Shown piece after piece: positions 4,125-60,145 of a stretch of DNA of 64,000 nt. The first letter of the stretch is position 1. Every line of letters begins with the position of its first letter. This DNA comes from a virus (taxonomy: Duplodnaviria; Heunggongvirae; Uroviricota; Caudoviricetes). The notes under the pieces are model-generated. The model searched no databases. It saw only the letters and a program-made list of their open reading frames with translations, and was not told where the DNA came from. Location: positions 1-64,000 of the IMG/VR virus record IMGVR_UViG_2799112923_000002. One strand, given 5' to 3'. Made by a program: the position numbers and the translations under genes.

Positions 4125-5075
4125 TTATGCGGTTTCTATAGTCCAGCCAGAAGGAATACCGTTGTCACCAGTTACATCCCAGTCAGCTAAAGTAGATTTC
4201 ACGAAAGTTCCGGTGTCACTAACTCCAGATACCCATCCGCCAGTATAAGTGCTTGACGGTGTGGTTGTAAACAACGCTTTTATATACGAAAGATTATTGC
4301 AATCGTAAAACATAAATTCATAGCAATAATTTACGAGCGTAGTTGCCGGAAGAACTGGAGCTTCGATTAAGGAAGTGCATCTGGAAAACATATTCGCATA
4401 GCATTCTCTTGCGAGCGTAATTGCCGGTAATTTTGGAGCAGCTACCAAAGAAACACAGCGATTGAACATATTTGCATAGCAACTTTCTGCAAGCGTCGTC
4501 GCCGGGAGCACTAGCGGACTTCCATCTTTGCTTAATACCCACGAATAGCTAAGATCCCTATAATAGTCTGCGAAGAAATATGCAAAAGCGTATCTTTCTA
4601 CTGAGTTCAAATCCTCAAAGTTCGCCTTTCTAATCAAAGACATAATATTCCCATACACATAACATGGCTTGTTTGACCAAAAATTACAATTATTAGCAGC
4701 AAAACCATAACCCTCAGAATAATATCCATATGAAGAATTATTCCCTCGGATTAGAACTTTATCTCCAGAATTAAGAGAAGCAATCGTTGCGCCGCGAACA
4801 CCATCGTCCGTAACGACAGCTTCCACTTCTATTCATGTCACTCCATTATCAGTAGATACATCTACCTTCAGAGGAGCAATACCATCAGATTCAGCTAAAG
4901 CTGTTTGCCGGAAATAAATCGTTGTACCATCTTGTGTGGCTTCTATAGTAAATGGAACGAGTAGATCCCCGTATACTTTTTTACGAAGGTCGTCAATCTT
5001 ATTTTTGACAAAGGTCTCGACTTCCTTATAGGTGTGCCCGTTCCAGGGCTCTTGTAATGTGTTTATTGTACTCAT
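4125..5075 (-). CDS. Tail fibre / receptor-binding paralog A with BspA-like LRRs (about 316 aa, one internal TGA=Trp at 4833-4835)
   Basis: ORFs 4833..5075 and 4125..4826 are joined by TGA; shares the FTIEAT...PLKVDVSTDNG N-terminal block and the YIKALFTTTP...GWV...GTFVKS...SGWT C-terminus with 5088..6677 and 7564..9315; repeated LPATTLA..CY..MF..C.SL units. Confidence 0.7.
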
Positions 5076-5087
5076 ATTTTCTTAGTT

Positions 5088-6677
5088 TTATTCAGTTTGA
5101 ACGGTCCAACCGGAAGGAATTCCGTTTCCACCAGTAACATCTCAAGCGGCAGAAGCAGACTTAACAAAGGTGCCGGAAAGACTTACACCTTGTACTCAGT
5201 TGTAAGTGTAAGTATTGGAAGGAGTAGTGGTGAACAACGCCTTAATGTATGAAAGATTTCTGCAACCATCGAACATTGTGTTATAGCAGTATGGTGCCAG
5301 TGTAGTAGACAATAGCTCCGGTGCAGTAGTTAATGAAGTACAGTTTTGGAACATAGAATCATAACAGCTGTTTACTAATACTGTCGCAGGAAGTTCCGGT
5401 GATATAGTCAACGAAGTGCAATTTCGAAACATACGTCTATAACAGTTGTCTGCAAGTGTCATTACAGGAAGTTCTGGAACAGTTGTTAATGAAGTACAAC
5501 CCTGAAACATACCTGAATAGCAACTATCTGCAAGTATCGTTGCAGGAAGTTCTGGAACAGTCGTCAATGAAGTACAACCAGAAAACATATTATTATAACA
5601 ACCATTTGCTAATGTCGTTGCAGGAAGATTTGAAACAGTTGTCAATGAAGTACAACCACGAAACATGTCTCGATAACAAAGTTTTTCAAGAGATGTTGCT
5701 TTGAGATCAGGAGTTTTAATTAACGAAATACAATTAACAAACATATTACTATAACAACTAACTGCCATTGTAATTGCTGGTAATTCTGGAGCAACGGTTA
5801 AAGAACTACAACCAACAAACATAGCTGAATAGCAATAACTCTCAAGTTTCATTACTGGTAATTCCGGAGCAGCAAGCAATGATGTACAATTCTGAAACAT
5901 ACCTGAATAACAAGAAGGTGCGAGTACTGTTGCTGGTAATTCTGGAGCAATTGTTAATGAAGAACATCCTCTAAACATATTACTATAACAACCTAATGCG
6001 AGTACAGTCGCTGGTAATTTCGGTGTAATAGTTAATGAAGAACATCCTCGAAACATATCACCATAACAATTCTTTGCAAGTGATGTTGCAGGAAGAAGTA
6101 TTGGACACTCATTTTTATTTAGTACTCAAGACCAATCTGGATCTTCATCATAGTCATTGTAATCAGAGAAAAAGTATGCAAAAGCATTTTTTCCAATCGA
6201 CTGTAATTTCTCAAAACCTGTTTTTCTGATTAGAGACATCATGTTGCCATATACATAACATGGTTTATCTGCTCAAAAATGACAATGATATATGTCCCTT
6301 TCAGCAGATCCTGAAAAACACCCATATGCAGAATTGTTACCTTTAATTATTATTTTGTCCCCAGGATTCAAAGAAGCAACGATACTGCCTGGAATACCAT
6401 TCTCTGCAGGAGCTGCGGTGATCTCCCTTCATGTCTGTCCATTATCAGTAGAAACATCTACTTTTAGTGGATCTAATTCGTCATAAACAGAATCAATAGA
6501 CTGTTGAAAATATATTTTTGTGCCGTTCTTAGTAGCCTCGATGGTAAATGGTCTCTTCTCGGGGTATTTCTCATACATCTTTTCTCCGCCCTTTTCCCAA
6601 AGATCCCTAAAAGCATCCTTCACATATTTTTCTACTCCAGAGTAGTCTATGTCTTTCCAAAGTTTGCTATCTACCAT
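5088..6677 (-). CDS. Tail fibre / receptor-binding paralog B with BspA-like LRRs (about 529 aa, several TGA=Trp)
   Basis: ORFs 6429..6677, 5196..6056 and the C-terminal piece TYTYNWVQGVSLSGTFVKSASAAWDVTGGNGIPSGWTVQTE join when TGA=Trp; TAA stop at 5088-5090. Confidence 0.65.
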
Positions 6678-7563: not shown

Positions 7564-9315
7564 TTAAAATTCAAAAAATTCAACTCTACTTTCATCCCCG
7601 GCCAATTTAATCCGGGCCATGAAACCAATTTCACTAATTGAATCTCTTGACCCAAAGACAAATTCGACACCCGTAGCAAACAGATAACGACATGATTCGT
7701 TTAAACAGTAGTACAGGATTTGATCATAATTATAACGCAATAAAATGTTCCGTTTTTCGTCAACCAAATTCCGCATCTCATCATAAGAAACGGATTTTCC
7801 GTCAATCTTAAAACAACTCAATGCCGTTTCCAACGATAGATCTCTTTGGTTATGAAATTCTTCCAAATCAATGATAATTGGATCTGAAATGCCGATATTC
7901 TCTCTAATCTGCTCTTTCTGTGCTTCTGTAAGGCTCATTGGTGCAGTGGTGACAGGCACATTTCCTGTACTCTCACCTTCTTTGACTGTCCAACCGGAAG
8001 GAACCCCATCATCGCCAGTAACAGACCAAGTTGCAGATGCAGACTTCACGAAGGTACCGTTTGCCGCGACGTTGTTCACCCAGCCACTTGTGTAGGTGTT
8101 CCCCGGCGTTGTGGTGAAGAGCGCCTTGATATACGCAAGGTTCGTGCAGTTGAAGAACATATAGTTGTAGCATTCGTTCGTAAGAGTAGTGGCGGGAAGC
8201 TCAGGAGCAGCAGTCAGTCCCGTGCAGCCCTCAAACATACTGCCGTAGCAGGCCTCCGCGAGCGCGGTGGCGGGTAACGTAGGCGCAGCGGTTAACCCAG
8301 TGCAGTCCCTGAACATATTGGAGTAGCATCTATTCGCAAGAGTAGTTGCTGGGAGTTCTGGAGCAGTAGTCAGACCAGCACAATGGTCGAACATTTGGTT
8401 GTAGCAAGACTCCGCAAGAATAGTAGCGGGGAGTGCGGGAGCACTTGTAAGACTCGTGCAGCCCTGGAACATACTGTAGTAGCAGCGTTCTGCAAGAGTG
8501 ATGGTGGGAAGCGCGGGAGCAGCGGTCAAACCAGTACAACCGGAGAACATCCAGGTATAACATCCCAGTGCGAGAGTAGTAGCTGGAAGTTCTGGAGTGC
8601 TCGTCAGTTCAGGGACACTTTGGAACATACCACAGTAACAGAACTCAGCGAGGGTAGTGGCAGGAAGCAGAAGTGGATCTTCCTCGTCGAGCACAACCCA
8701 CGGCTCGAGTTCTGAGTTATAATCCGAGAAGAAATATGAGAACCCATAATCCGCAACTGTGCGAAGTCTGGCAAAGTCATCCCCGCCAACAAGCGACATA
8801 ATATTACCTGACACCTTGCATTCATGGTCAGCCCAAAAGTTGCAGTTATCAACCGCTTCGCCCTCCGAATCAGAAAGATACCCATAAGCCTGGTTTCGTC
8901 CACGGATAAGAACCTTTTCCCCAGCATTAAGGGAAGCAAGGGTTGCACCAGGTACATCATCTTCTGCAGGGGCAGCTGTAACTTCAGTCCAAGTTGCACC
9001 ATCATCGGTTGAAACCTCGACTTTTAGAGGGTCCAACCCATCATTTACTGCATAATCAGATTGACGGAAATAAACTGTAGTCCCATCTTCAGTAGCTTCG
9101 ATGGTAAAATATTCCTTATACTTATCTAAATCAACACCCACTTCATTAGCCAGTTCAGTAACCTTATCATTAACAGCTTTAGCGGTAGGATACTGTTCAT
9201 TAGATTCAGTTACAGTTGATACCTTATTACTTTTATCTTCCTTTCTAGTCAATGAATTCACAAGATCTTTATATTTCTTATGAATGGCATCATAAATAGT
9301 TTTTATATCGTTCAT
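7564..9315 (-). CDS. Tail fibre / receptor-binding paralog C (583 aa) with BspA-like LRRs; GC-rich LRR core contains no TGA codons
   Basis: Single uninterrupted ORF; N-terminus MNDIKTIYDAIHKKYKDL; middle 7870-9000 is markedly GC-rich with repeated LPATTLA..CY..MF..CTGLT units; conserved C-terminal block. Confidence 0.8.
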   Translation of the reverse strand: MNDIKTIYDAIHKKYKDLVNSLTRKEDKSNKVSTVTESNEQYPTAKAVNDKVTELANEVGVDLDKYKEYFTIEATEDGTTVYFRQSDYAVNDGLDPLKVEVSTDDGATWTEVTAAPAEDDVPGATLASLNAGEKVLIRGRNQAYGYLSDSEGEAVDNCNFWADHECKVSGNIMSLVGGDDFARLRTVADYGFSYFFSDYNSELEPWVVLDEEDPLLLPATTLAEFCYCGMFQSVPELTSTPELPATTLALGCYTWMFSGCTGLTAAPALPTITLAERCYYSMFQGCTSLTSAPALPATILAESCYNQMFDHCAGLTTAPELPATTLANRCYSNMFRDCTGLTAAPTLPATALAEACYGSMFEGCTGLTAAPELPATTLTNECYNYMFFNCTNLAYIKALFTTTPGNTYTSGWVNNVAANGTFVKSASATWSVTGDDGVPSGWTVKEGESTGNVPVTTAPMSLTEAQKEQIRENIGISDPIIIDLEEFHNQRDLSLETALSCFKIDGKSVSYDEMRNLVDEKRNILLRYNYDQILYYCLNESCRYLFATGVEFVFGSRDSISEIGFMARIKLAGDESRVEFFEF

Positions 9316-9331
9316 ATTTATATAAATTTTT

Positions 9332-9358
9332 AAAATAGCCCCATATAGGGGCTATTTT
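9332..9358. terminator. Bidirectional hairpin terminator (tagcccc-atata-ggggcta) flanked by A- and T-runs
   Basis: Perfect 7-bp inverted repeat between convergent/adjacent minus-strand genes. Confidence 0.55.
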
Positions 9359-18813: not shown

Positions 18814-19361
18814 ATTATTGTTTTTAGTTTATACAATTATTTTCGCAAATATAAACATTTAAAAGGAGAAATCCAAATAAAAGTGAGAAAATCCGAAATA
18901 AAAAAATGTGGATGTTATAGGGGTGGAAAGAGACACTACGAAATCGGCCCCCCGGCATGCGCCGTGGGAAAACCGATTTCGAGTGCAACCTTTGTCCAAT
19001 TCTTGGACGAAAGAAAAATAGGAAGCGAATGCTCCGCATCGCTTCTATTTCCAGAGTCCCGACCGTAGGTCAGCACGTTAAGTGCTGGCCACTGTCGTTC
19101 CCCTGCAGTTTAACTGCAACTCGCTAACGAGTTTCCGTTAGATACCGTAAAGTCGGCGGGAGTACCGACTTCCATAGGAGCGCGACAAGTCCGAACAAAG
19201 TCGTTAAGACAGCTTTACCGGAGAGAGAAACGAATTCCGGTCGGACACCTATGGTTGGACCATCTATGGTACAAATTAACGAGTTGCGTAAAACGCTGCC
19301 TTGGATAAGTAGCGTCTCATCATTCTGGGGAAGATGATGAGTTTAACTTCCAATCGCAAGG

Positions 19362-20054
19362 ATGGACCTGTCCAACACCAAGCGCGTATCCCTCGAAACC
19401 GTTAACCAGATCGCCGAGTCTCAGGGCATCGACATGATCGACCGCACGGTCGGTCAGATTGTTCCTCTCGACGAGAGTGATCTGATCACTCTTGGAGCCA
19501 TCTTCCTCACGAATATGGGGAAGAGCGTGCTCTCGGAGGACGGGGCCGATTGGGCCAAGGGCTGCTACTGGGTCTCCGAGTGTGACCACAAGCACGGAGA
19601 CGTCTCCGTCAAGACGGATGTGGCCGATTCGGCCTTCGCTCGTGGCGGGAAGAAATTCCCGTCTCTCGAGGAGAAGGTCACTGTCGGCCGCCAGGTCGAG
19701 GACAATCTCGGAGGCTTCAGCCTCTATGAGGAGATCCTCAAGACGCTCACGCCTGCCCAGCAGGCTCTGAACCTGGATCTGTCCAGGCAGGAGCCCGCTC
19801 TGGACAAGCTCAAGCGACTCAAGGGTCGCACCTTCCGCGTGATCAAGCGCGTGAAGGCGTATCGGCTCCGTCAGCGTCCCAAAGATGCTGGTGATGACTG
19901 GGGATCCAAGCCGTCTCATTGGCGGCCTGTGTATCTCCTCTTCTTCGAGGAGGTCCTTGCAGCACAGCCTGCAACAGCTCCAGAACAGGTAGCGGCACAG
20001 CCTGCTCCTGCTCCTGCTCCGCGTCGCGGTCGTCCTCGCAATACCAACAATTAA
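19362..20054 (+). CDS. Hypothetical protein in GC-rich island; C-terminal RRGRPRNT AT-hook-like motif; standard code (no TGA)
   Basis: 230-aa ORF with GC3-rich codons unlike the rest of the window. Confidence 0.4.
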   Translation: MDLSNTKRVSLETVNQIAESQGIDMIDRTVGQIVPLDESDLITLGAIFLTNMGKSVLSEDGADWAKGCYWVSECDHKHGDVSVKTDVADSAFARGGKKFPSLEEKVTVGRQVEDNLGGFSLYEEILKTLTPAQQALNLDLSRQEPALDKLKRLKGRTFRVIKRVKAYRLRQRPKDAGDDWGSKPSHWRPVYLLFFEEVLAAQPATAPEQVAAQPAPAPAPRRGRPRNTNN

Positions 20055-20145
20055 TTGTTGGTGATCCATTCGCATCAGCAAGAGTTATCGCTTTGCTCGC
20101 TGATGAATCCAAGCGATTCCATTTAATATAGACACAACTAACACC

Positions 20146-20415
20146 ATGAGACTGTCTAAAGACTTTTTCGAAGAGAGACTTCTTCACATCATTGCCGCAT
20201 ATCTGCGGTTAACTCGCTCGGGCACCAAGCCCGAAAATGTTCCTGTGAAACTGCTGGTTTTCCAGTATGGTTTCGTTCGATTCACCAGGACCGAATCGTT
20301 AGCCATCGCTCTGAAAGAACTTGTTTGCTGGGTCGATCGCCATCGTCAGAATGACCATAGAGGCAATTCTCCTAGCAAGGAACAAATGCTGACCTTCATC
20401 AAGAATCGAATCTGA
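20146..20415 (+). CDS. Hypothetical protein (89 aa) in GC-rich island
   Basis: ORF followed by a strong terminator at 20419-20464; uses TGG for Trp. Confidence 0.4.
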   Translation: MRLSKDFFEERLLHIIAAYLRLTRSGTKPENVPVKLLVFQYGFVRFTRTESLAIALKELVCWVDRHRQNDHRGNSPSKEQMLTFIKNRI

Positions 20416-20418
20416 AAT

Positions 20419-20464
20419 AAAGCCCTCGCAATCCATTTGGATTGTTTGAGGGCTTTATTTTTTT
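20419..20464 (+). terminator. Rho-independent terminator (aaagccctc...gagggcttt + T8)
   Basis: 9-bp stem with a nested inverted repeat in the loop, then a T-run. Confidence 0.65.
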
Positions 20465-20552
20465 ACCTACCTACTGGCCTACGGCCTTAAACACAAAACC
20501 CTTGTCCACTTCGTGGACCGTAGTATACTAAACATACGGTATTTTATTATCT

Positions 20553-21161
20553 ATGGAGATTAACGAGAAAACTTTAGCCGCCGCAAAGGAGATCTTTGAG
20601 GCAGGCCTCGGCAACAATACTTCTGTTGTCGAACACCAGAATGTGGAAGAGCTGAAGGAAGCGGTGGCTTCTGTAGGTCAGCGAAACACCACAGCTCTCG
20701 GTGATGGTGAGATCGCCGAATTCTTCGATGCCAAGGCGTACGAAGAGAACGCAGATAAATATCTCATCCACACTCAGTCAACCAGTTCCAATGGCCGCAC
20801 TTTCGACCGTGTGTACGCTCTGTGCAACCGTTACTTCCTTGTTGGCAACAAGAAGGTCGGCGAGCATCTGAGCTTCATCGACATCGGAGGTATGGTTCGC
20901 CGCCACTATGATCTCACCGGACTCGCTCCGGATGCTGAAGGCAAGATCAAGGGTGCAGTCCGCGTCGTCACTCCTGGTGACTTCAACAACAAGCTCGAAG
21001 CATACAAGCAGCCTTGGAGCATGCTCACGCAGTTCCTCGCTGGCAAGAAAATTCGCGCAAAGCGTTCCACCGACAAGCTCTTCTTCCAGGAGTTCGTCAA
21101 CCGCCAGCCTGTGCCTGACAAGTATGTCGAGCAGACGTACATGGTTTACAACTTTGCTTAA
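20553..21161 (+). CDS. Hypothetical protein (202 aa) in GC-rich island
   Basis: Balanced composition and GC-rich codons; overlapping minus-strand ORFs are likely artefacts of high GC. Confidence 0.45.
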   Translation: MEINEKTLAAAKEIFEAGLGNNTSVVEHQNVEELKEAVASVGQRNTTALGDGEIAEFFDAKAYEENADKYLIHTQSTSSNGRTFDRVYALCNRYFLVGNKKVGEHLSFIDIGGMVRRHYDLTGLAPDAEGKIKGAVRVVTPGDFNNKLEAYKQPWSMLTQFLAGKKIRAKRSTDKLFFQEFVNRQPVPDKYVEQTYMVYNFA

Positions 21162-22250
21162 GCTGTATACCGTAAAGGGATGATTGTCGCCATCCCTTGA
21201 TACCATAACTACCATTGGTGGCGATAAACTGCACGTCGCCAATGGTAGAGGGTATCCATTGTATGGACTATATGAGTTGTATAACTGTGGCAATAATTAT
21301 TGAATTATTGTCCATGCGTTTCAACCACCAAATTTTTTGAATATCTAGTTCCTCGAAGTGTGAATCGAGTATAAAGAAAACAATCTTGGCAGTTTAGTTT
21401 ACTGCACGAAGGGGATTGGTATCTATCAGGCAGCAATGAAGATAGAATGAGTTGAAAGTCCCTACTGCGAGGTGTAACGAGTCCTCGTCTTTGTTTAACT
21501 TTTAATTATCGCGAGCTCCCATGGGTCCACATCAGTCACAGTTTTTCTGACCTTCTGATTTCGGATGCTTATAATACAATCGCGTAAAAGTTAAAAGGGA
21601 GTATTTAATTTTTTTGGAGCCTAGTCGTCCCCATGTCTATGGTACTGGAGAACCGCAAACCCAATCCAGGAGAGTACGCATCCAGGACATTTGGCTCACA
21701 TATGATTCCAAACAGCAATGGGGTTGCCTGGTGTAAGCTGCCAGATTAGTAAAGCTAGTCCGTGTGATGAGGTCCCATAAGGATCTATTAGGAACATCTA
21801 ATCGGATCGTTGAGGCAGGAGTAATTAACCTGCGTGTTTAACAGCTCAATGAAGGTCGACAACCTTAGAAGGAATCCTAACCCCTTAAATAGTCCGTGCG
21901 ATTTGTGGTGCACCACTGTGTATGCGTAAGCACTAATCATACACAATCGTACGTTCTCTAATGTAGCCATTGGCGGTCACAAGCCCGCATGTGAAATATA
22001 GAGTGGAGAAAACGTTCATACTATGGCACTATTTCTTTTATTTTTCATTCTTTTAATTGTGTTTCTTGACACTGACATGTGTGCCAATTTATTTGATTCT
22101 AAATCCCATAAAGAGTGAAATCAATATGGGGGTTCTAATGCGGGAAAGACCCCCGGTTGGTCGCCGGGCCCGCTCCAAGCTTAAAAACGCACACAGTTTA
22201 ACGGTTTCCTTGTCATGTCATTGGTGTTAGTTGTTCATTGGTTGTTCGAA

Positions 22251-22287
22251 AACTCCAGTTTGTGCGTTCTGGAGTTTGTGTTTTTTA
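22251..22287 (+). terminator. Terminator hairpin (aactccag...ctggagtt + T-run)
   Basis: 8-bp perfect stem followed by tgtgttttttaaa. Confidence 0.55.
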
Positions 22288-22508
22288 AATGCTCGTGTCG
22301 TCTAGCGAATAGGACGATTATCTCTCCGGTAATTACGGTGGTTTGAATCCATCCGCGAGTACAAATAAACAGCGATTACTATGGAGCACAAGATTATGGG
22401 TCGCGCCCGATATATAACCTTGCCATAGGTGTAAAATTTAGTATAATAATTGCCCGGCCAGCAGACCGCTGTTTTAAATTGAAAGTGTTAGTTGTGTATT
22501 AAATAGGA

Positions 22509-22550
22509 AAACCCACAGCCTCGAGATGGGGTTGTGGGTTTTTATTTTTT
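22509..22550. terminator. Terminator hairpin (aaacccacagcc...ggggttgtgggttttt), probably bidirectional
   Basis: Stem-loop plus T-run immediately downstream of the minus-strand gene ending at 22553. Confidence 0.5.
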
Positions 22551-22552
22551 AT

Positions 22553-41393: not shown

Positions 41394-41465
41394 GCCCCAT
41401 TGGTCGATAGGTAAGGCAACTCTCCCTAAAAGAGGCATATGCGGGTTCAAATCCTGTATGGGGCA
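41394..41465 (+). tRNA. Aberrant tRNA-like gene; anticodon arm ctct-ccctaaa-agag would present CTA (reads UAG) with C33
   Basis: Perfect acceptor gccccat/atggggc and T-arm GGGTTCAAATCC; 3-bp D-stem; 4-bp anticodon stem. Confidence 0.4.
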
Positions 41466-41595
41466 CATTATATGTGAAATGTATCTAGGACGCTAGAATA
41501 CAAAGTAACCGGGTTTGGCTACAACCACACTGGAAGAAACCAAAAAGCACAGTGTATTAAAGAGGTACCTGGGAACAGAAACCCTCTTATTTTAT

Positions 41596-42911: not shown

Positions 42912-43525
42912 TGATTTGATTTATTTTAATAGTTTTATTAACAATAAGTCTATGTTTTTTATCATATAGAAAAGGTGCATTAAAAGAATTAGAAAAAATA
43001 AACAATTCTCTTGATAACTATCTTGAATCACATAAAAACATGGAAGAATTGTTTTATCCTGGAATTGAAGTCACAAAACATATCATTGATCAATTAAAAG
43101 ACCAATGATAATAATTGGGCCTGACTAGAATAGAACGATATGAGATTTATAATATAACATGTACGAGCTGAACAACTCGTTTATCAACTATTCAAACAAA
43201 TAAATGCCAAAAATCTCATTTCCGAAATTCGTAACAAGGTTATGGATTTCTGCAACAGTATTGTAAATTTCTTTGCTTCTGAAGCAAATTTTGCAATAGC
43301 TATTGCCTAGTTTCTTAATTCTATAAAAATTAAGTGGTGGAGATGGGAGATAGAATCCCGTTAAATAATGCCGAAAACGTGCCGGAGCGATATCGGGGAA
43401 GACTATGGTAAGAAGGCTTTCTTGTTAGTTTACAAAGAATGTTGAACTAACTAAACATGTAAATAATTATATTATTGATACGTAGGCGTGACTGAGGTGC
43501 GAATCCTCACAGGTCCACTATAAAT

Positions 43526-47002: not shown

Positions 47003-47033
47003 CCAACTACAGCATTTTTAAATTAATTAATTT

Positions 47034-48059
47034 ATGAACAAGATTTTAGTTTACACATCTAATCTTACGAGCAAGCCAAAGAGTCTTGCTGACGTAATTG
47101 CATTTGCAAAGGAGAACGATAAGTTTCGTATTTGCAATGTAGGTCTTAACGCTCACCTTGGAAATGTTAAGCCTGGTGATAACATTATTACCGGTAAGGG
47201 TAATTCTATTTATGTAATTAAGGCTTTCGATCAGGAGATTGAGAATCTCTCTGGTGAAGATCGTGATTACATCGATAACCTTACTCGCAACTATGATATC
47301 AAGAAAGTTGGTATCACGAGTGTTTCTTCTGTCATCAAGTATGGTGACTGGTGCAAATTTGCAAAACCGCTTCTTAACGAGGCAAAAAATAATTCAACAA
47401 TGAAAGGTAACAATTCTATTAAGGGTTTCTCCGCCCGTCTGAAGGAGATGTTTATGCCCTCTGAGGCAACGGATGTGCGTATCGCCACCGATGGTAATAT
47501 TTGTGTAGAGACTGCTAATGGCTTTGTCGCCATTGGTGTTAATAACGACCTTGTAGCTTATCCTGAAGAGCTCACTCTTAAGCTGCCTGTGTTTATCGTT
47601 AGCAAGCCTATCGACCAGGTAAAGGTTGGCGACGTTATCGCTCGCGATCGTAGCTATGCTAAGGTCAAGTCGATCGATAAGAATAAGATCGGTGTTGTCA
47701 GCTATACTGGTGCTGGTTCTCAGATCTATCCGATCAAGGACTTCCTGCTTGGTCAGAGCCTTGTTCGCGTTGTAGTATCTCTTGCAGGTTCTATCAACGG
47801 TTCCATCAATCCTATGATTCTCCTCGCTATGAGTGATGGTGACAAGGATTCCATGCTTCCTCTGATGCTTATGAGCCAGAATAATGGTGCTCTTGGTGCC
47901 AATCCTATGCTCATGTATGCTATGATGAAGGACGGTGGTGACATGAAGGATCTTCTTATGATGTCCGCTCTCACTGGAAACAATAACCTGTTCGGAAATC
48001 TCTTTAGTGCTCCTGCTCCGGTAGCTGCAGCACCTGCAGAAGCACCTGTTGAAGGTTAA
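47034..48059 (+). CDS. Hypothetical protein (341 aa) with Met/Gly/Leu-rich C-terminal tail
   Basis: ORF; C-terminal PMILLAMSDGDKDSMLPLMLMSQNNGALGANPMLMYAMMKDGGDMKDLLMM; moderately GC-rich; terminator at 48074-48112. Confidence 0.5.
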   Translation: MNKILVYTSNLTSKPKSLADVIAFAKENDKFRICNVGLNAHLGNVKPGDNIITGKGNSIYVIKAFDQEIENLSGEDRDYIDNLTRNYDIKKVGITSVSSVIKYGDWCKFAKPLLNEAKNNSTMKGNNSIKGFSARLKEMFMPSEATDVRIATDGNICVETANGFVAIGVNNDLVAYPEELTLKLPVFIVSKPIDQVKVGDVIARDRSYAKVKSIDKNKIGVVSYTGAGSQIYPIKDFLLGQSLVRVVVSLAGSINGSINPMILLAMSDGDKDSMLPLMLMSQNNGALGANPMLMYAMMKDGGDMKDLLMMSALTGNNNLFGNLFSAPAPVAAAPAEAPVEG

Positions 48060-48850: not shown

Positions 48851-49467
48851 TAAAAGTATATGTTGTAGGAAACAGTAAGTATTATGCTAGTTTTCTAACA
48901 AATGTAGAATTAACAGACGATATTACTAAAGCAAAAATTGTATTATTTACTGGAGGAGAAGATGTTGACCCTTCTTTATATGGAAAGAAGAAACATCCTT
49001 CTACATATAGTAATTTGCAAAGAGATCTTTATGAAAAAGAAATCTTTAGTCAAATGCGTAAATCACAATTAGCAGTTGGTATTTGTCGTGGATCTCAATT
49101 TTTGTGTGTAATGAATGGAGGAATTCTTGTTCAGAATTGTACTAATCACGCTTTATTCCATACACATAGAATTTTTAATGCAGATCGAACATTCTTTTAT
49201 GAAATTACTTCTACGCATCATCAAATGCAATATCCATTTGTTCTTCCAAAGACTAGTTATGATATTTTATATCATGCAGAAGAAGGATCTTGTGTAGAAG
49301 GTGATGGTATTTCTTCTGATCCTATCGTTGAAAATGAACCAGAAGTAGTAGTATATCATAGAAAGAATTTACCAAAATGTATTGCTATTCAAGGTCATCC
49401 GGAAATGATTCCTAATAGTCCTGTAGCAAAAATGTTAGATGAACTTATAAAGTCTTATGTACATTGA
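48847..49467 (+). CDS. Class I glutamine amidotransferase-like / gamma-glutamyl hydrolase (peptidase C26) family protein
   Basis: FTGGEDVDPSLYG ... GICRGSQF (nucleophile Cys) ... QGHPE (catalytic His). Confidence 0.6.
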   Translation: MIKVYVVGNSKYYASFLTNVELTDDITKAKIVLFTGGEDVDPSLYGKKKHPSTYSNLQRDLYEKEIFSQMRKSQLAVGICRGSQFLCVMNGGILVQNCTNHALFHTHRIFNADRTFFYEITSTHHQMQYPFVLPKTSYDILYHAEEGSCVEGDGISSDPIVENEPEVVVYHRKNLPKCIAIQGHPEMIPNSPVAKMLDELIKSYVH

Positions 49468-50251
49468 TAATTTTACAATTGGTGCAGACCCTGAATTATT
49501 TATTGTAAATTCTAAAACTGATAAAGTTGTATCTTCTATTGGATTAATTCCTGGTGTGAAAGGCGATCCATATGTAGATAAATGTATGCCATCTGGATTT
49601 GGACTGGAAACAGATAATATTCTTGCAGAATTTAACATTCCGCCTTGTAAAACAAAAGAAAGTTTTGTTACAAGTATAGAGTGGATGAAAAGTTATATTA
49701 GGGATTTTGTTAAAAGAGTAAATCCTGATTATGACATTAAATGTTCTGCTAGTGAATTTGTAGATCCAGATCAACTTCAGAGTGATGAGGCAAAACAATT
49801 TGGATGTTCTGTAGATTATAATGCTTATACACAAGAACCTAATCCAAAGCCTAACGGACAGTCTACAAATCTTAGATCAGCAGGATGTCATATCCATATT
49901 GGATATAACGGATATAATGCAAGAACCTCTGTAAATCTGATTAGATTATTTGATTTGTATGTAGGTGTACCATCCATTCTTATAGATAATGATATTAGAC
50001 GTAGAAATCTCTATGGAAAAGCTGGTGCATTTAGATTAACATCTTATGGTTGTGAAGCGAGAATTTTATCAAGTTATATGATGTCCACACCTCAACTTAT
50101 AAGTTGGATATGGGACCATGTAATGCTTGTCATAGACGCTTATAACGCAGGTAATAGTTGTGCAGATACATCTGCCGTAGTTAAAGCTATTAATGAAAGT
50201 GATAAAGATCTTGCAACACGAATTTGTAGAAAATATAACATTCCTGTATAA
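49457..50251 (+). CDS. Amidoligase (carboxylate-amine ligase, GCS2/YbdK-like fold), copy 1
   Basis: N-terminal FTIGADPELFIV (cf. YbdK FTLGIELE) and GCHIHIGY (cf. GQHVHVG). Confidence 0.5.
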   Translation: MYIDNFTIGADPELFIVNSKTDKVVSSIGLIPGVKGDPYVDKCMPSGFGLETDNILAEFNIPPCKTKESFVTSIEWMKSYIRDFVKRVNPDYDIKCSASEFVDPDQLQSDEAKQFGCSVDYNAYTQEPNPKPNGQSTNLRSAGCHIHIGYNGYNARTSVNLIRLFDLYVGVPSILIDNDIRRRNLYGKAGAFRLTSYGCEARILSSYMMSTPQLISWIWDHVMLVIDAYNAGNSCADTSAVVKAINESDKDLATRICRKYNIPV

Positions 50252-51531
50252 TGTGTGGTATTTTTGGAATCATCAATAGAAAACCTAGTAAGTTTGATTA
50301 TTCTACTTTTTGTACATTAGGTATAGCTAATGATATTAGAGGTGGAGATTCTTGCGGTATTTTTATTGATGGAAAAACTGAATATGGTATTGGTAAAGAA
50401 AAGTTTTTCGAAGATTTTTTCTTACAAAGTGAACTCTTAAACGATACCGAAAGAGCTACAATTGCTTTAGGACATTGTAGAAAAGCTTCTGTTGGAGCTA
50501 TTAATTTGGCTACAGCTCAACCGATTGTAATTCAGGATGAAAACAATAATACAAAATTTGTAGTCATTCATAATGGTACAATTTATAATTATAAAGAATT
50601 AGCTGAGAAGTATATTCCAGATATAGATATTACTGGATTAACCGATAGTCAAGTTATGGCTAGAATATTCTATTATAAAGGATATGATGTTTTATCCGAA
50701 TATAATGGAGGAAGTGTCTTTGTAATTGTAGATTATCGCACAGTTAAACCAAAGGTTTTATTCTTCAAAGGTGTTTCTAAGAAGTATGACACTTCTACAG
50801 AAGCAACAGAAGAAAGACCTCTTTATCTTTGTTTTTCTAAAGATAAATTAGTATTTTCATCAATTTATACATATTTGGCAGCATTATGTCCAGATATGGT
50901 AATTTATACAGGTAATGCTAATTCGTTAGCTCAGTATGAAGATGGAAAATTAATTAAAGTACGTCAATATGATAGGTCTAAGTGTGTACAACAGCGTACT
51001 TATCCTGAAACAAAAAGTACCGGTCTTTATGAAGAATATGCAGGATATTTGTCGTTCGCTCTTAAGAAATTTCGTTACAGTCTTGATGGCGGTAAAAAGA
51101 TTCCTGTTGGCCCATATTTCATAAACGAGTGGGGAGGTACATATAAAAATAAACCTACTTATACTGCTTCAACACAGTATTATTTCTTTCATGGAATTCC
51201 ATTCTTAGATAGAAGTCGTTACGATTATGTATGGGAACATTATACAAAGGCTAAAACATGTATGGAAGATTTTATAGCGGATAATGAAATTTTGATTAGA
51301 TTTCTTAGTTCGAATCCGTTTATATTTAAAGATAATCGTTTATTTACTATAAAAGATCCAGATCATGTAGAACCATATACAGGTAATTTTGTTCCAATAG
51401 GTGGATCTAGAAAGTCAAAGTATAATGAAGGTATATTTGTATGTGAAGTTTATGATTATTCGCGTACAAATTTTAATTATTCCATAAAAGATATTAATCT
51501 TAATTCACTTAATTCATTATGGAAACTATAG
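50251..51531 (+). CDS. Class II (Ntn) glutamine amidotransferase domain protein
   Basis: Starts MCGIFGI with Cys2 nucleophile, then DIRGGDSCGIF, as in PurF/AsnB/GlmS N-terminal domains. Confidence 0.65.
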   Translation: MCGIFGIINRKPSKFDYSTFCTLGIANDIRGGDSCGIFIDGKTEYGIGKEKFFEDFFLQSELLNDTERATIALGHCRKASVGAINLATAQPIVIQDENNNTKFVVIHNGTIYNYKELAEKYIPDIDITGLTDSQVMARIFYYKGYDVLSEYNGGSVFVIVDYRTVKPKVLFFKGVSKKYDTSTEATEERPLYLCFSKDKLVFSSIYTYLAALCPDMVIYTGNANSLAQYEDGKLIKVRQYDRSKCVQQRTYPETKSTGLYEEYAGYLSFALKKFRYSLDGGKKIPVGPYFINEWGGTYKNKPTYTASTQYYFFHGIPFLDRSRYDYVWEHYTKAKTCMEDFIADNEILIRFLSSNPFIFKDNRLFTIKDPDHVEPYTGNFVPIGGSRKSKYNEGIFVCEVYDYSRTNFNYSIKDINLNSLNSLWKL

Positions 51532-52739
51532 ATGGAATTACAGGAAAAGTAATTCATAATCGTGTATTTCGATATATAGCTGAAGTAGTAAATGGGATTT
51601 TAATTTACGGAAATACTAGTAAAGTCGAGGAATTACGTAGTGTTATAGTTGTTGCTGAAGGTAGAAAAACTTCAGCATTTTGTGATCCTAAGTCAGTTAA
51701 AAATATTACATGGAGTCCTTTTCTAGGAGATTATGTTTTAATTGTCGATGATCATTGTCCAGATGCAACACATGTAAAATACGGATTAAATCCTGATTTA
51801 TATCCTTATACATTTCAGAAAAAATATGAAGCTGTACAACATTTTAATTTGTTTAAAGATAAGCAAGTTAAAATAGAAGATTATGATTTTCCAATTGCAA
51901 AGTATGTAACACGTACAATAGGTATTGAGTTTGAAACATCTTTAGGTGCTATTTCTGAAGAAGATTGTTTAAAATATGGACTTATTCCATTAAGAGATGG
52001 ATCTATTAGTGGTGTAGAATATTCAACTGTTATTTTACAAGGTAATTCTGGATTTAATTTACTCAAAAAACAATTAGATTTATTAAGACAGAATACATTC
52101 TTTAATAAAGATTGTTCTTTACATATTCATTTTGGTGATTATCCATTAGATCCAAAATTAATTTATAAACTGCAAGCCTTGTTATATAACATTCAAAATG
52201 AAATTCAATGTTATATTCCAAGATATTCCTTTTATACAGAAAAATATAAGAGTAATGGTAAAGCATATTGTAAACCACTTGCATCTTATAGTAGCTTTTC
52301 TGATTTCTTCGTAGCGTTAACAGGAACTCCGTTCTTAGGAAGTTTTACTCAACCTCATCCAAATGACATTACAAGAGATCATAAATGGAATGTTCCAACT
52401 AGATATTATTGGTGTAATTTCATAAATCTCTTATGTTATAATGTTAACAAAACTGTTGAATTCAGATTTTTGCGTCCGACTTATAATCTTGAGAAGATTT
52501 TAACTTGGATTTACATTCTCAACGGATTTTTGGAATATGCTTCGCGTGGATTAAGAACGCTTCGAGTTGATATTAGAACTGTATTATCTACGGTTTATCC
52601 TAAAGAAGTTTTTGAATTTTTATGTGTACAGTTAGATAAATTAACTTGTCTTAGGGACATGCAATGTCACAATTTAGATTACATTGGTGAGGACATTACT
52701 CTTGAGAACAGATTGTTTGATGATAATAAAATTATTTAA
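51519..52739 (+). CDS. Amidoligase (GCS2-like), copy 2 (406 aa)
   Basis: TIGIEFETSLG ... CSLHIHFGDY signature blocks parallel to 49457..50251. Confidence 0.45.
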   Translation: METIDGITGKVIHNRVFRYIAEVVNGILIYGNTSKVEELRSVIVVAEGRKTSAFCDPKSVKNITWSPFLGDYVLIVDDHCPDATHVKYGLNPDLYPYTFQKKYEAVQHFNLFKDKQVKIEDYDFPIAKYVTRTIGIEFETSLGAISEEDCLKYGLIPLRDGSISGVEYSTVILQGNSGFNLLKKQLDLLRQNTFFNKDCSLHIHFGDYPLDPKLIYKLQALLYNIQNEIQCYIPRYSFYTEKYKSNGKAYCKPLASYSSFSDFFVALTGTPFLGSFTQPHPNDITRDHKWNVPTRYYWCNFINLLCYNVNKTVEFRFLRPTYNLEKILTWIYILNGFLEYASRGLRTLRVDIRTVLSTVYPKEVFEFLCVQLDKLTCLRDMQCHNLDYIGEDITLENRLFDDNKII

Positions 52740-57644: not shown

Positions 57645-58131
57645 CCAATCTTTAAATTAAGATAATATGTTAAAAAAATTATTAGATATATTTAAAACAA
57701 AAGATGTCAAAAATTCAATAATTCTAAAAGAATTAAAAGATGCAGATCTTTTTGATACTATTTGGATTGTTGATAAATCTGGAACAATTTATGAAGGTTG
57801 GATTTATGATAAAACCAGAAAGCATATTATTGTTACTGTGCCTGTAGAACAGGGTGAATATCAAGATTATAGATTTATTATAAGTAAATCAAATAGATTT
57901 GATACAACAATAGAACAAAATCATAATATTTTACATTTTAATAAACCATGTTAGCTGGAGAAATTGTATACTTTCCATATAAAGATGGATTTGTAAGATA
58001 CAAAATTAGGAAAATTATGGACGATGATTTATTAGTTCTCACATATAAAAGTAATATTTCGAATTGCATTCCAATATCAGAAGTTTTAACTACTGAACAA
58101 TTTGCAAAAACATATAAAAATGAAATAATTT

Positions 58132-59262
58132 ATGAGTAGATTTGAAAAGTATTATATCACTCCGGCTATAAAAACATATGTAGATCATAGAGAGGAGTGT
58201 ATTCCTTATTACGATGCTTTTTATTCTGAAGAAGCTGGTGGATGGATTTTAGCAGGCGCATCTCTTCCAATTTTTGTTGCACCAATGGCGTGCATTATAG
58301 ACGATAATAACTGGAAAAAGTTTGATTCTGAAGGACTTAATGTAATTATTCCAAGAACTGTTGATTTTGAGAAAAGACTTAAACTTGCAAATGAGCAATT
58401 ACTTTGGATTGCTGTTGGATTGGATGAATTAGAAAAAATCTATAATTTATCTAATATTGAAGAAATGTATGTTTGTTTGGATATAGCAAATGGACATATG
58501 GCAAGTGCACTAGATTTATGCAGTAAAGTAAAAGAAAAATTTGGAAATAGAGTTACTTTAATGTTTGGAAATATTGCAAATGCTGATACATATTTGGAAT
58601 ATGCTAAAGCAGGAATTGATTATTGCCGTGTTGGAATTGGTGATGGTCAAGCTTGTTTAACCAACACTCTTACAGGTATTTCTCAAGATTTTCCAAAAAT
58701 AATTAAAGACCTTAATTACAGAAAGCAACGTGTTGCATCAAGTGGAGCTTTCTATAAAAGCGTTCCTAAAATTGTTATCGACGGTGGTATGTCTTCTATA
58801 CGTGATATAGTTATCGCTTTAGCAATGGGTGCTGATTATGTAATGTGTGGTAAGATTTTCGCTCAATGTGAAGAAGCTGCTGGTGAAATTGTTTCAAAAC
58901 TTATTGAAACAGTTGAACAATTTAAAAGGCACACTACCGAATTAAGAGATTATCCTTTTGATGAAGATTCAGAAGATGTCGATGGATCAGCTAAAACATA
59001 TCCTGTTTTGTTTGATAGTAAACAGTTTGTTTATCAACGTGGCAGAATGTATTACGGTATGTCAACTGAACGTGCTCAGAAAGAGATGGGAAACAAAAGA
59101 ATTAAACCCGCAGAAGGTAAAGAATATTGGATTCCTATTGAATATAAACTTAGTGAGTGGGTTCATCAGTTTGTGGCCGCAATAGCATCTACCATGAGTT
59201 ATTGCAACGTTACTCAACTTAAGGATTTTATCGGAAAAGTTACCATAAATAAATACGATTAA
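58132..59262 (+). CDS. GMP reductase / IMP dehydrogenase-family TIM-barrel enzyme
   Basis: VCLDIANGH ... VGIGDGQACLT ... IDGGMSSIRDIVIALAMGADYVMCG parallel the GuaC/GuaB active-site blocks. Confidence 0.6.
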   Translation: MSRFEKYYITPAIKTYVDHREECIPYYDAFYSEEAGGWILAGASLPIFVAPMACIIDDNNWKKFDSEGLNVIIPRTVDFEKRLKLANEQLLWIAVGLDELEKIYNLSNIEEMYVCLDIANGHMASALDLCSKVKEKFGNRVTLMFGNIANADTYLEYAKAGIDYCRVGIGDGQACLTNTLTGISQDFPKIIKDLNYRKQRVASSGAFYKSVPKIVIDGGMSSIRDIVIALAMGADYVMCGKIFAQCEEAAGEIVSKLIETVEQFKRHTTELRDYPFDEDSEDVDGSAKTYPVLFDSKQFVYQRGRMYYGMSTERAQKEMGNKRIKPAEGKEYWIPIEYKLSEWVHQFVAAIASTMSYCNVTQLKDFIGKVTINKYD

Positions 59263-59273
59263 AAATAAAAGAT

Positions 59274-59705
59274 ATGAAAATTACAAGAGCACAGAAAGAT
59301 GCAGTTCTTGATCTTCTTAGAGAAAAATTTGATGAGAAAGAATTTGAAGTTTTCAACAAATTTAAAGAAGATAACAAAAAGGATATTCAAACAAAGTATG
59401 CTAAATTAATTGAATGTTATAATAAACTACTTCAATTGAAAGCCGTTATTGGAGAAGAAATCAAAACGTTCAATGTTATTAGAAAGGCATTTGAGGAATT
59501 AGATTTTGATTATCACTTTAACGGTTCGGATGTAACCGGATATTATAAATCTGAAGATACGTTTATTGACGCCCTTTTAAAATTGAATTTTAAGAAACTA
59601 AAGCGTCCTGATTTTATTAAGGTGGAAAGACAGCTTGAACTAGACACATTAAGTAAAGATTTTAACTTAGATGCATTTATAGACAAATATCTTTCTGAAG
59701 AATAA
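59274..59705 (+). CDS. Hypothetical protein (143 aa)
   Basis: ORF. Confidence 0.45.
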   Translation: MKITRAQKDAVLDLLREKFDEKEFEVFNKFKEDNKKDIQTKYAKLIECYNKLLQLKAVIGEEIKTFNVIRKAFEELDFDYHFNGSDVTGYYKSEDTFIDALLKLNFKKLKRPDFIKVERQLELDTLSKDFNLDAFIDKYLSEE

Positions 59706-59767
59706 AAATTTGGAAATTTGAAAATTTTTTTGTAACTTTATATTCTGATACTTACAATCACAATACT

Positions 59768-59842
59768 GTGGGTTCGAGTCCCGCATTTGCTGCATTTTAG
59801 CGAATTGGTGTAAATGGTAGACACGAATGAATAGGGTTCATT
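59768..59842 (+). ncRNA. Candidate circularly permuted tRNA-like locus: 3' half (T-arm + acceptor 3' strand + GCA) precedes a 5' half (complementary acceptor 5' strand + Leu-like D-arm + anticodon-like arm with loop atagggt)
   Basis: gtggg-ttcgagt-cccgc atttgct g ca tttt agcgaat t ggtgtaaatggtagacac g aatga-atagggt-tcatt; atttgct pairs with agcgaat (6 WC + 1 GU); motif gatacttacaatc 15 nt upstream. Confidence 0.3.
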
Positions 59843-59870
59843 TTTATTAATAAGTATCAATAAGTGTATA

Positions 59871-59960
59871 GGAGCTTAGTGTAACGGTAGCACACAGGTC
59901 TTCAAAACCTGGGTAGCGGCGTCCAAAACCGCGGGTGTGGGTTCGAATCCTGCAGCTCCT
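59871..59960 (+). tRNA. Suppressor tRNA, anticodon TCA (decodes UGA), about 90 nt with long variable arm; candidate UGA-to-Trp decoder
   Basis: Acceptor ggagctt/cagctcc, anticodon arm caggt-cttcaaa-acctg (perfect 5 bp, anticodon 59902-59904), extra-arm hairpin gcgg-cgtccaaaa-ccgc, T-arm GGGTTCGAATCC. Confidence 0.65.
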
Positions 59961-60145
59961 GCAGTAAAATACAATTATTATGGAATTTATATTTATTTAT
60001 TCGATTCCTTGTATCATAAGTTTTTTGCTTATGAATCAATGTTACAAGAAAAATTTATTAGATTATCCAATGCTTTCTGCATTAAGTTGTATTATTCCTT
60101 TTGTAAATTGGATTGGATTGGTATGTTTTATATGTAAATTAAAAA

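Follow-up and report, generated by a model that had tools for sequence, protein, structure and literature searches.

A conserved GC-rich module joining an uncharacterised protein cassette to a slot of interchangeable structured RNAs in a TGA-recoded phage

The DNA analysed here, positions 1 to 64 000 of IMG/VR record IMGVR_UViG_2799112923_000002 (Caudoviricetes), is called the window (W) in what follows, and numbered homologous loci or contigs are given as L001 onwards. Between about 18900 and 22550 it contains a GC-rich island which a preliminary description, made from the letters alone, had read as a foreign insertion. We find instead that this segment is a clade-conserved, rightward expression module, neither an artefact nor a recent insertion. 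It has a fixed core, made up of a leader RNA of about 430 nt, an open reading frame (ORF1), a repeated 22-nt palindromic motif, ORF3 and ORF4; and a variable part, made up of ORF2 and a 3' RNA slot that is closed by a tRNA-Glu(CUC), or a degenerate copy of it, and a terminator. The features are as follows.

18925-19361, plus strand: structured leader of ORF1, an RNA of about 430 nt that shows covariation and belongs to no Rfam family
18934-18985, plus strand: first hairpin of the leader, long and imperfect, kept in 11 of the 11 loci examined
18987-19008, plus strand: first copy of the 22-nt motif, AACCYTTGTCCANTTCNTGGAC, which holds the palindrome GTCCA-N5-TGGAC
19362-20054, plus strand: ORF1, 230 aa, GC content at third codon positions (GC3) 0.70, TGA-free, conserved partner of ORF3
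20146-20415, plus strand: ORF2, 89 aa, stop codon TGA, a variable accessory gene replaced or absent in relatives
20419-20464, plus strand: intrinsic-terminator-like hairpin and T-run after ORF2 and upstream of the second motif copy, by sequence inspection, present also in relatives
20497-20518, plus strand: the 22-nt motif again (second copy), 35 nt before ORF3, overlapping a sigma-70-like TTGTCC-16-TATACT
20553-21161, plus strand: ORF3, 202 aa, GC3 0.64, TGA-free, a rare family with no known domain
21124-21348, plus strand: ORF4, small, in the +1 frame relative to ORF3, with a conserved peptide from 21160 and a possible start at ATG 21124
21208-21249, plus strand: 16-bp hairpin within ORF4 (inverted repeat I4), 25 nt past the conserved TGA
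21349-21602, plus strand: lineage-specific insert between AAATTTTTTG..CTAG repeats, missing from L016-L018
21603-21954, plus strand: RAGATH-14-like RNA unit, with a 5' extension, a core at 21719-21898 and linker hairpins
21955-22009, plus strand: predicted twister-P1 ribozyme (RF03160), without P3
22010-22290, plus strand: variable spacer, in which lie a GGGGG..CCCCC hairpin and, at 22253-22286, one of terminator-like form
22291-22362, plus strand: degenerate tRNA-Glu(CUC)-like element, called as tRNA-Glu(CTC) by ARAGORN
22507-22553, plus strand: strong intrinsic terminator closing the module, with a T-run after its 17-bp stem, kept in L007 and L019

More than 10 independent assemblies, all from related phages, carry the module at this position; the contigs come from ENA, Logan, NCBI and JGI samples, and two of them are of about 167 kb. 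Wherever a contig was long enough the order was minus-strand virion genes (Phage_lysozyme2, ART-PolyVal), the GC-rich ORF1/ORF3 block, a gene-poor stretch and then an HTH_36/DnaD_N-like gene. This full flanked arrangement is present in L001-L004, L006 and L016-L018; the ORF1 and ORF3 pair also lies on the shorter contigs L007, L008, L011, L012, L019 and L020, and tblastn detected both genes in all phage loci of sufficient length. The alignment to the closest relative, L019, spans both island junctions, and identical junctions in independent assemblies from the four sources dispose of the misassembly that the preliminary description had considered. Its suggestions of a moron, a satellite or another recent insertion fared no better: the module is present and syntenic in all related contigs, from many independent samples, and so lacks the absence from relatives expected of a genomic island or moron; no convincing direct repeats flank it; and no integrase-like family was recognised among the genes called in or next to it, nor any Pfam domain in its ORFs. 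The description had also allowed for relatives with AT-rich, TGA-containing orthologues at this position; instead, GC3 of ORF1 and ORF3 is 0.50-0.84 in all relatives, even at 30-50% protein identity. For the anti-defence role that it proposed we found no evidence and no Pfam or PHROG matches (PADLOC was not searched).

When TGA is taken as sense, the long ORFs of the window add up to 17.9k residues, compared with 10.1k otherwise, and the window encodes 20-odd tRNAs, among them suppressors with the anticodons CTA and TCA; the phage is therefore TGA-recoded and tRNA-rich. Its genome of about 167 kb is distantly akin to those of Bacteroides phages, the nearest cultured phages by Cpn60 protein being Bacteroides phages SJC03 and DAC16-23 (166-179 kb; 43% identity). 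The lack of a Shine-Dalgarno sequence before ORF1, ORF2 and ORF3 (by sequence inspection), together with a Bacteroidota-type -7 box (TAnnTTTG) before the leftward operon, is consistent with a Bacteroidota host. In-frame TGA is frequent in the minus-strand late and virion genes to the left of the island, with 21 such codons in one gene of 1342, and nearly absent from the plus-strand early and replication genes to its right; this agrees with the early/late partition of the genetic code already published for recoded phages (Borges et al., bioRxiv 10.1101/2021.08.26.457843). The island lies at the junction of the TGA-recoded virion genes with the standard-code early and replication genes.

The compositional contrast on which the preliminary description was built is real. 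GC content by 1-kb windows is 0.556 (19001-20000), 0.484 (20001-21000) and 0.441 (21001-22000), against a norm of about 0.28-0.39 for the window, whose GC content is about 0.33 overall, and the three plus-strand ORFs of that description were found where it had placed them. That these are GC3-rich and TGA-free holds for ORF1 and ORF3, which contain no in-frame TGA, both end at TAA and compare with a GC3 of 0.13-0.16 in backbone genes; as for TGA, ORF2 uses it as its stop. The abrupt change of code is seen relative to the left-hand virion genes and not relative to the right-hand early genes, which also lack in-frame TGA: the trait specific to the island is its third-position composition, the absence of TGA being common to the whole early module. 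A second GC-rich segment (0.47-0.58) occupies 7900-9100 of the window, within a minus-strand TGA-free ORF at 7564-9351 (595 aa) that has a weak match to the BspA-type leucine-rich repeat (LRR) family LRR_5 (E 1e-3). It had been taken to share a donor with the island on composition only, a proposal that we reject since the sequences are dissimilar; nor does the segment resemble the LRR_5 gene that adjoins the ORF3 homologue of L005.

The leader is a new large structured RNA. Aligned with five relatives (alignment A10) it contains 17 helices and 133 pairs, of which 25 are changed on both sides, compared with 9.8 +/- 2.3 in shuffled alignments (0/500) and 1-4 in slid controls; the inverted repeats noted earlier in this region thus exist and covary across relatives, and the idea of a large structured non-coding RNA is borne out. 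Its first hairpin shows compensatory AU<->GC, UA<->AU and GC<->AU changes among 11 loci (alignment A8), and a conserved hairpin at 19316-19341 ends the leader about 20 nt before the start of ORF1. In a permissive Rfam scan of about 4 kb (a wider scan covered 64 kb) the leader gave only a chance-level match to psm_mec RNA (E 3.7, far under its threshold) and none to the T-box model.

The 22-nt motif that lies within the leader recurs before ORF3, the two exact matches in the window comparing with 0.01 expected, and it is kept in all relatives whose sequence includes both regions. The spacer at 20429-20534 that surrounds the second copy has 83-87% identity in distant relatives. Promoter, operator and RNA hairpin are all conceivable roles for the motif; it does not fit an ECF-type (extracytoplasmic function) or a canonical Bacteroidota promoter. 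Nor can it be treated as a host-derived site, its matches in bacterial genomes (three in 596 Gb) being what chance allows and one of them lying inside an ABC-transporter gene. Searches of IMG/VR found neither the motif nor the leader.

A separate observation concerns 18 nt of a conserved hairpin in the leader (19215-19232, UUACCGGAGAGAGAAACG), which show 89% complementarity to the tRNA-Glu(CUC)-like element over its anticodon arm (22315-22332). The 7-nt loop CUCUCCG of the hairpin pairs fully with CGGAGAG of that element, and the core of the pairing is possible in L007 too. About 0.2 such 18-nt complementarities would be expected by chance (an estimate), and this one may be coincidence or else a kissing or a T-box-like contact.

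ORF3 belongs to a tiny family. Its homologues form 26 clusters of 49-100% identity, with conserved columns in their alignment, and 19 clusters were found among 1.84 billion representatives; protein-guided scans of 185 579 GTDB species genomes, IMG/VR and GenBank phages yielded no relatives of ORF1 or ORF3, and DNA searches with the island, or with 20 kb around it, gave no matches among GenBank phages. ORF1 to ORF4, the neighbouring small ORFs and the long variants of ORF3 had no Pfam or PHROG matches. The AlphaFold2 (AF2) model of ORF3 is a confident new fold model (pLDDT, the per-residue confidence score, 91.8) with what may be a barrel resembling the oligonucleotide/oligosaccharide-binding (OB) fold, and the structure of ORF1 was predicted from 6 sequences. 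Both models returned weak, overlapping sets of matches to OB-fold single-strand-binding proteins, with scores too low for membership of the fold class; the overlap of the match lists suggests that the two modelled proteins share an OB-like barrel. That they are paralogues is unproven (hhalign probability 1.4%). The AT-hook-like RGRPRN tail to which the preliminary description had drawn attention is present in ORF1 of the window and confined to close relatives.

The same description placed a strong terminator after each gene. One was found after ORF2 (20419-20464); the hairpin after ORF1 has no T-run and those after ORF3 lie inside coding sequence. The element that follows ORF1 (20073-20122, hairpin CATCAGC..GCTGATG) has 82-85% identity in the distant L004 and L011 and is better kept than the flanking coding sequence. 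A tRNA-Ser called by ARAGORN at 20730-20822 on the minus strand is antisense within ORF3 and has no Rfam support; it was discarded as a false positive.

Homologues of ORF3 also occur in longer forms (L005 852-1796; P0034, P0038, P0039 and P0013) that share a conserved C-terminal extension, ..IKYD.G.RTL....IDDVR..EFPGK.YCDWEVVYRMAR.. in outline. This extension is unrelated to ORF4, which was rejected as its homologue. L005, the one such locus examined, encodes an ORF3 homologue of 314 aa on a GC-richer (46%), non-syntenic contig beside caspase, CHAT and MreB-like genes; in view of this homologue an ancient transfer in either direction, including acquisition from a GC-richer source, is possible.

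The 1.2 kb to the right of ORF3 had been described as free of ORFs. This is so for 21349-22550, in which no convincing ORF was found even with TGA as sense, and not so at its start, where the small, conserved ORF4, whose frame contains two TGA codons (21181-21183, near-invariant, and 21301-21303), runs from 21124 or 21160 to 21348. Its peptide, KL(Y/F)T(V/F)KG-[TGA]-LS..IITTI.G.KL.V.N.RG(Y/F)PL.G(F/L)YE(L/V)Y...Y.II...QPPNFF*, is conserved in 11 loci and was found by tblastn in every phage locus except L015, which has an unrelated flank; the block at 21162-21345 is conserved in distant relatives. Differences among the 11 loci fall at codon positions 1/2/3 in the numbers 576/445/982, the frame is always +1 relative to ORF3, and all indels past the ORF3 stop are multiples of 3. 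In several loci no start codon exists downstream of the near-invariant TGA, so that this codon has to be read through. In the L007 lineage CAG occupies the position, and the second TGA of the window aligns with Tyr, Phe or Cys in relatives. Translation could begin at the overlapping ATG 21124 or by a +1 frameshift from ORF3. The local hairpins reported at 21185-21250 are real, the one at 21208-21249 showing 9 pairs with compensatory changes among 9 loci. From its sequence the island thus appears to hold one suppressor-dependent gene, contrary to the earlier view that its genes do not depend on the suppressor.

Beyond ORF4 and the insert, which contains a sigma-70-like CTGACC-17-TATAAT at 21547-21575, the remainder of the ORF-poor stretch carries structured RNAs, as had been suspected. 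The core of the RAGATH-14-like unit matches the full RAGATH-14 model (RF03145, positions 1-190; 64.8 bits, E 4e-10; gathering score 149.1). Covariation supports it, with 12 compensatory pairs within the clade and 14 covarying pairs in comparison with canonical RAGATH-14 taken from ten IMG/VR phages of 130-192 kb (173-183 bits). The predicted twister-P1 ribozyme scores 40.6 bits (E 1.2e-6 over 4 kb and 1.9e-5 over 64 kb) against a gathering score of 67.2; the missing optional P3 costs score, and relatives reach 46-55 bits. W, L019, L016 and L011 all form P1, P2 and P4 (95.3% of cells paired), with double changes in P1 and P4; the T1 pseudoknot of the W clade is CAC/GUG and that of L011 and L007 UCC/GGA, with two of the three pairs differing on both sides; and T2 (GC/GC) is kept in 4/5 sequences. 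The core nucleotides of the Rfam consensus (invariant A14 columns) are present, namely UAA at the cleavage site, GCC, AAGCCCG, AAA and GAG, and by homology cleavage would fall between U21959 and A21960. On sequence and predicted structure both RNAs are taken to be divergent relatives of their families, supported by structure, and not curated members. The tandem also occurs in L016, L017 and L019, the conserved unit being 21603-22011, and the association of RAGATH-14 with self-cleaving ribozymes is found here too, with the twister 56 nt downstream of the core; canonical loci hold pistol and RAGATH-1 hammerhead ribozymes.

In other relatives the slot is filled differently. L001, L006, L007 and L020 have in it a GOLLD-like RNA some 800 nt long (60-82 bits, E 1e-13 to 5e-20, under the gathering score of 150), which in L004 lies just past the HTH_36 gene; the window itself has no match to GOLLD (RF02032) at E<=0.05, and L007 has a weak twister upstream of its GOLLD-like RNA. 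The element that closes the slot is a canonical tRNA-Glu(CTC) of 52 bits at the same position in L016 and L017, and degenerate but conserved in W and L007. In the window it keeps a cloverleaf and a 7-nt anticodon loop, with 82% identity to L007 and covariation in the anticodon stem; it has no RF00005 match even at E<=10, a T-loop UUUGAAU, C at position 37 and no CCA. The closing terminator, previously placed at 22507-22543, is real. In L019 an insertion of 830 nt (5002-5810) directly 3' of the twister carries ORFs of 214 aa, without a Pfam family, and 55 aa; the predicted ribozyme would there leave a 5'-OH on an mRNA.

Canonical RAGATH-14 copies of 173-183 bits are followed about 30 nt on by an amber-suppressor tRNA (CTA) in IMG/VR phages of about 188 kb (L022 8888-9181, L025 935-1208 and L030 652-945). 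This position directly upstream of amber suppressors suggests a link between the RNA family and recoding that is unmentioned in the theta-ribozyme paper (Kienbeck et al. 2024, PMC10879173).

As a whole, the locus is best explained as a standard-code, probably early expression module whose 3' RNAs would be released by ribozyme and tRNA processing, an account towards which we lean by a narrow balance. ORF1 and ORF3 should be translatable by the machinery of the uninfected host, because they combine the standard code with GC3-rich codons unlike those of the rest of the phage, which would make their early synthesis probable; their composition would be held by selection, for host-like codons or for RNA structure, and would not be the remnant of a recent transfer. 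ORF4 would be completed only with the UGA suppressor tRNA of the phage and would be the part of the module tied to the code switch. The 3' non-coding RNAs would be cut from a longer transcript: self-cleavage of the twister at U21959/A21960 would give the RAGATH-14-like RNA a defined 3' end, because the cleavage site coincides with the 5' edge of the twister itself, while the tRNA-like element and the terminator would set the remaining ends. We infer that the twister would thereby do the job of RNase P cleavage at the adjacent suppressor tRNA in canonical RAGATH-14. These steps (early ORF1 and ORF3, suppressor-dependent ORF4, processed 3' RNAs) are moderately likely. A weaker proposal, made by analogy, is that ORF1 and ORF3 might be OB-fold single-stranded nucleic-acid-binding proteins whose long leader may allow translational autoregulation.

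Several observations weigh against this account. With a GC3 of about 0.15 the early genes nearby are AT-rich, and a need for host-like early codons therefore fails to explain why only ORF1 and ORF3 are GC3-rich; terminator-like hairpins after ORF2 and at 22253-22286 argue against a single long transcript; and the plus strand lacks a Bacteroidota -7 box, no promoters of the module having been identified, while the sigma-70-like -10 element before ORF3 is not kept in L007. The start codon of ORF4 is undefined, and both the twister and the RAGATH-14-like RNA fall under the Rfam gathering thresholds. To these must be added that the island is 90% identical to that of L019 compared with 96.7% for the flank, and that its content is mosaic, ORF2 and the slot being exchanged among relatives.

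The last two points are also those that would be expected of a moron, satellite or anti-defence cassette which came from a GC-richer donor and is still compositionally foreign. The sharp contrast in GC and GC3, the tiny and patchy ORF3 family and the homologue on the non-syntenic L005, near caspase, CHAT and MreB-like genes, fit such an origin as well. Against it, all related phage contigs that were found have the module at this one locus, and it is GC3-rich throughout, even where protein identity falls to 30-50%, a distance at which a neutral foreign signature should have decayed; mobility is not indicated by flanking repeats or by integrase-like families among the called genes, no defence-related Pfam or PHROG match was obtained, and the species genomes, IMG/VR and GenBank phages that were scanned contain no ORF1 or ORF3 relatives. 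We regard a foreign island of this kind as unlikely. An assembly chimera, or GC-rich non-coding sequence with spurious ORFs, would account for the abrupt compositional boundaries, and many overlapping ORFs do arise by chance in GC-rich DNA; its probability is negligible given the junctions shared by ENA, Logan, NCBI and JGI assemblies, the conserved columns and high pLDDT of ORF3, and the third-position excess of substitutions in ORF4.

Other readings give the structured nucleic acid the leading part. In one, the GC-rich DNA, its transcripts and SSB-like (single-strand-binding) proteins would mark a replication origin, for example an R-loop or transcript-primed one, with the hairpins acting in DNA. 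The island does lie at a switch of gene strand and near the cumulative GC-skew minimum (about 24 kb), adjoins the HTH_36/DnaD_N-like gene, contains a conserved palindromic motif and encodes two weakly SSB-like proteins; yet that minimum lies 1.5 kb to the right of the island, where gene orientation changes, neither iterons nor an AT-rich unwinding element came to light, and the long-range nested helices with compensatory changes, the predicted ribozyme and the RAGATH-14 and GOLLD homologues indicate a function in RNA, so that an origin seems quite improbable. In another, ORF1, ORF3 and ORF4 would be dedicated partners of the leader, RAGATH-14-like and GOLLD RNAs in chaperoning, packaging or processing. 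The protein core is linked to the structured-RNA slot in those relatives whose contigs span it, the modelled folds look OB-like, and purine-rich GGAG/GAGAG loops recur in the leader; but these proteins go together with RNAs unrelated to one another (GOLLD or RAGATH-14), neither ORF1 nor ORF3 occurs in canonical RAGATH-14 phages, and L005 has ORF3 without an RNA slot. Such a ribonucleoprotein module is rated about as doubtful as an origin. The same low probability attaches to the boldest version, a self-contained ribonucleoprotein and code-switch unit in which ORF1 and ORF3 would be the first protein partners of GOLLD, RAGATH-14 and the leader, the UGA and hairpin of ORF4 would act as a sensor or timer of suppression, and RAGATH-14 would belong to the recoding machinery because its canonical copies lie directly upstream of amber-suppressor tRNAs.

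Elsewhere in the window, the amber (CTA) and opal (TCA) suppressor tRNAs lie at 41394-41466 and 59870-59962, yet among late genes TGA alone is often found in frame; the TCA tRNA, of 93 nt, is labelled SeC by ARAGORN. A match resembling transfer-messenger RNA (RF00023; 38 bits, E 1e-11, under the gathering score of 47) was obtained at 43117-43520 on the plus strand, in the tRNA-rich region, and just after a run of tRNAs stands a plus-strand, moderately GC-rich ORF of 342 aa (47031-48059; GC3 0.42) without a Pfam match. The regions 49451-52739 and 58129-61732 encode phiEco32-like COOH-NH2 ligase, GATase and amidoligase genes, an IMPDH/GMP-reductase-like gene and a Cpn60 chaperonin.

The locus is a variant of the phage structured-RNA and tRNA-island theme, joined to an uncharacterised protein cassette. 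To our knowledge the conserved GC3-rich ORF1/ORF3/ORF4 cassette, the leader RNA, the conserved TGA of ORF4, the interchange of RAGATH-14 plus twister with GOLLD in one slot and the twister-linked subgroup of RAGATH-14 are new. GOLLD, RAGATH-14 and bacterial twister ribozymes are, as far as we know, well-defined RNAs without known function, and we know of no protein cassette described as linked to GOLLD; by placing these RNAs interchangeably in one slot behind a fixed protein and leader cassette, the locus offers a defined genetic context for tests of function. The retention of a host-like, GC3-rich composition by ORF1 and ORF3 over a long divergence, in a genome of GC3 0.15, bears on how phage genes are translated before the phage's own tRNAs and code switch are in place. 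ORF4 with its single conserved UGA is a natural reporter of that switch, and the position of canonical RAGATH-14 upstream of amber-suppressor tRNAs makes a connection between the RNA family and recoding directly testable.

Among known systems, autoregulated phage SSB genes (the T4 gene 32 leader and gp32; f1 gene V) offer a works-like analogy only, the shared feature being a putative OB-fold protein behind a long structured 5' leader. In the code partition of Borges et al. (bioRxiv 10.1101/2021.08.26.457843), as here, late structural genes contain in-frame TGA and early or replication genes, ORF1 and ORF3 among them here, can be read in the standard code; an extreme, lasting GC3 shift in two genes, and one conserved TGA in a small ORF within an otherwise standard-code module, lie outside that description. 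RAGATH-14 (RF03145; Weinberg et al. 2017, PMC5737381) resembles the present unit in its full-length match, shared helices and covarying pairs, and in its setting in large, AT-rich, tRNA-rich recoded phages with an adjoining self-cleaving ribozyme (here predicted). The unit differs in scoring 65-73 bits against a gathering score of 149, which marks a divergent subgroup, in its conserved 5' extension of about 115 nt, and in being followed by a predicted twister where canonical copies are followed by an amber-suppressor tRNA. Compared with type-P1 twisters (RF03160; Roth et al. 2014), the candidate ribozyme shares P1, P2, P4, T1, T2, the UAA context and the AAGCCCG loop, with covariation in P1, P4 and T1; it lacks the optional P3, has CAC/GUG and not CCC/GGG as T1, and scores 40.6 against 67.2.

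The occurrence of GOLLD in phages near tRNA islands has been published (RF02032; bioRxiv 10.1101/2024.12.08.627333), and the GOLLD-like RNAs of the relatives, which stand in the 3' slot or just past a neighbouring gene (L004), are likewise close to tRNAs; the window differs in having no GOLLD, and the copies in relatives score 60-82 bits against 150. Finally, ribozyme-assisted processing of tRNAs and other RNAs in recoded gut phages has already been published for theta ribozymes (Kienbeck et al. 2024, PMC10879173). In both systems a recoded phage has a small self-cleaving ribozyme, here predicted, in such a position that the cut would fix one end of the structured RNA beside it; the ribozyme of the present locus would be a twister and not HDV-like (hepatitis delta virus), its neighbour is a RAGATH-14-like RNA and not a tRNA, and it lies 3' of that RNA, where it would set the 3' end.

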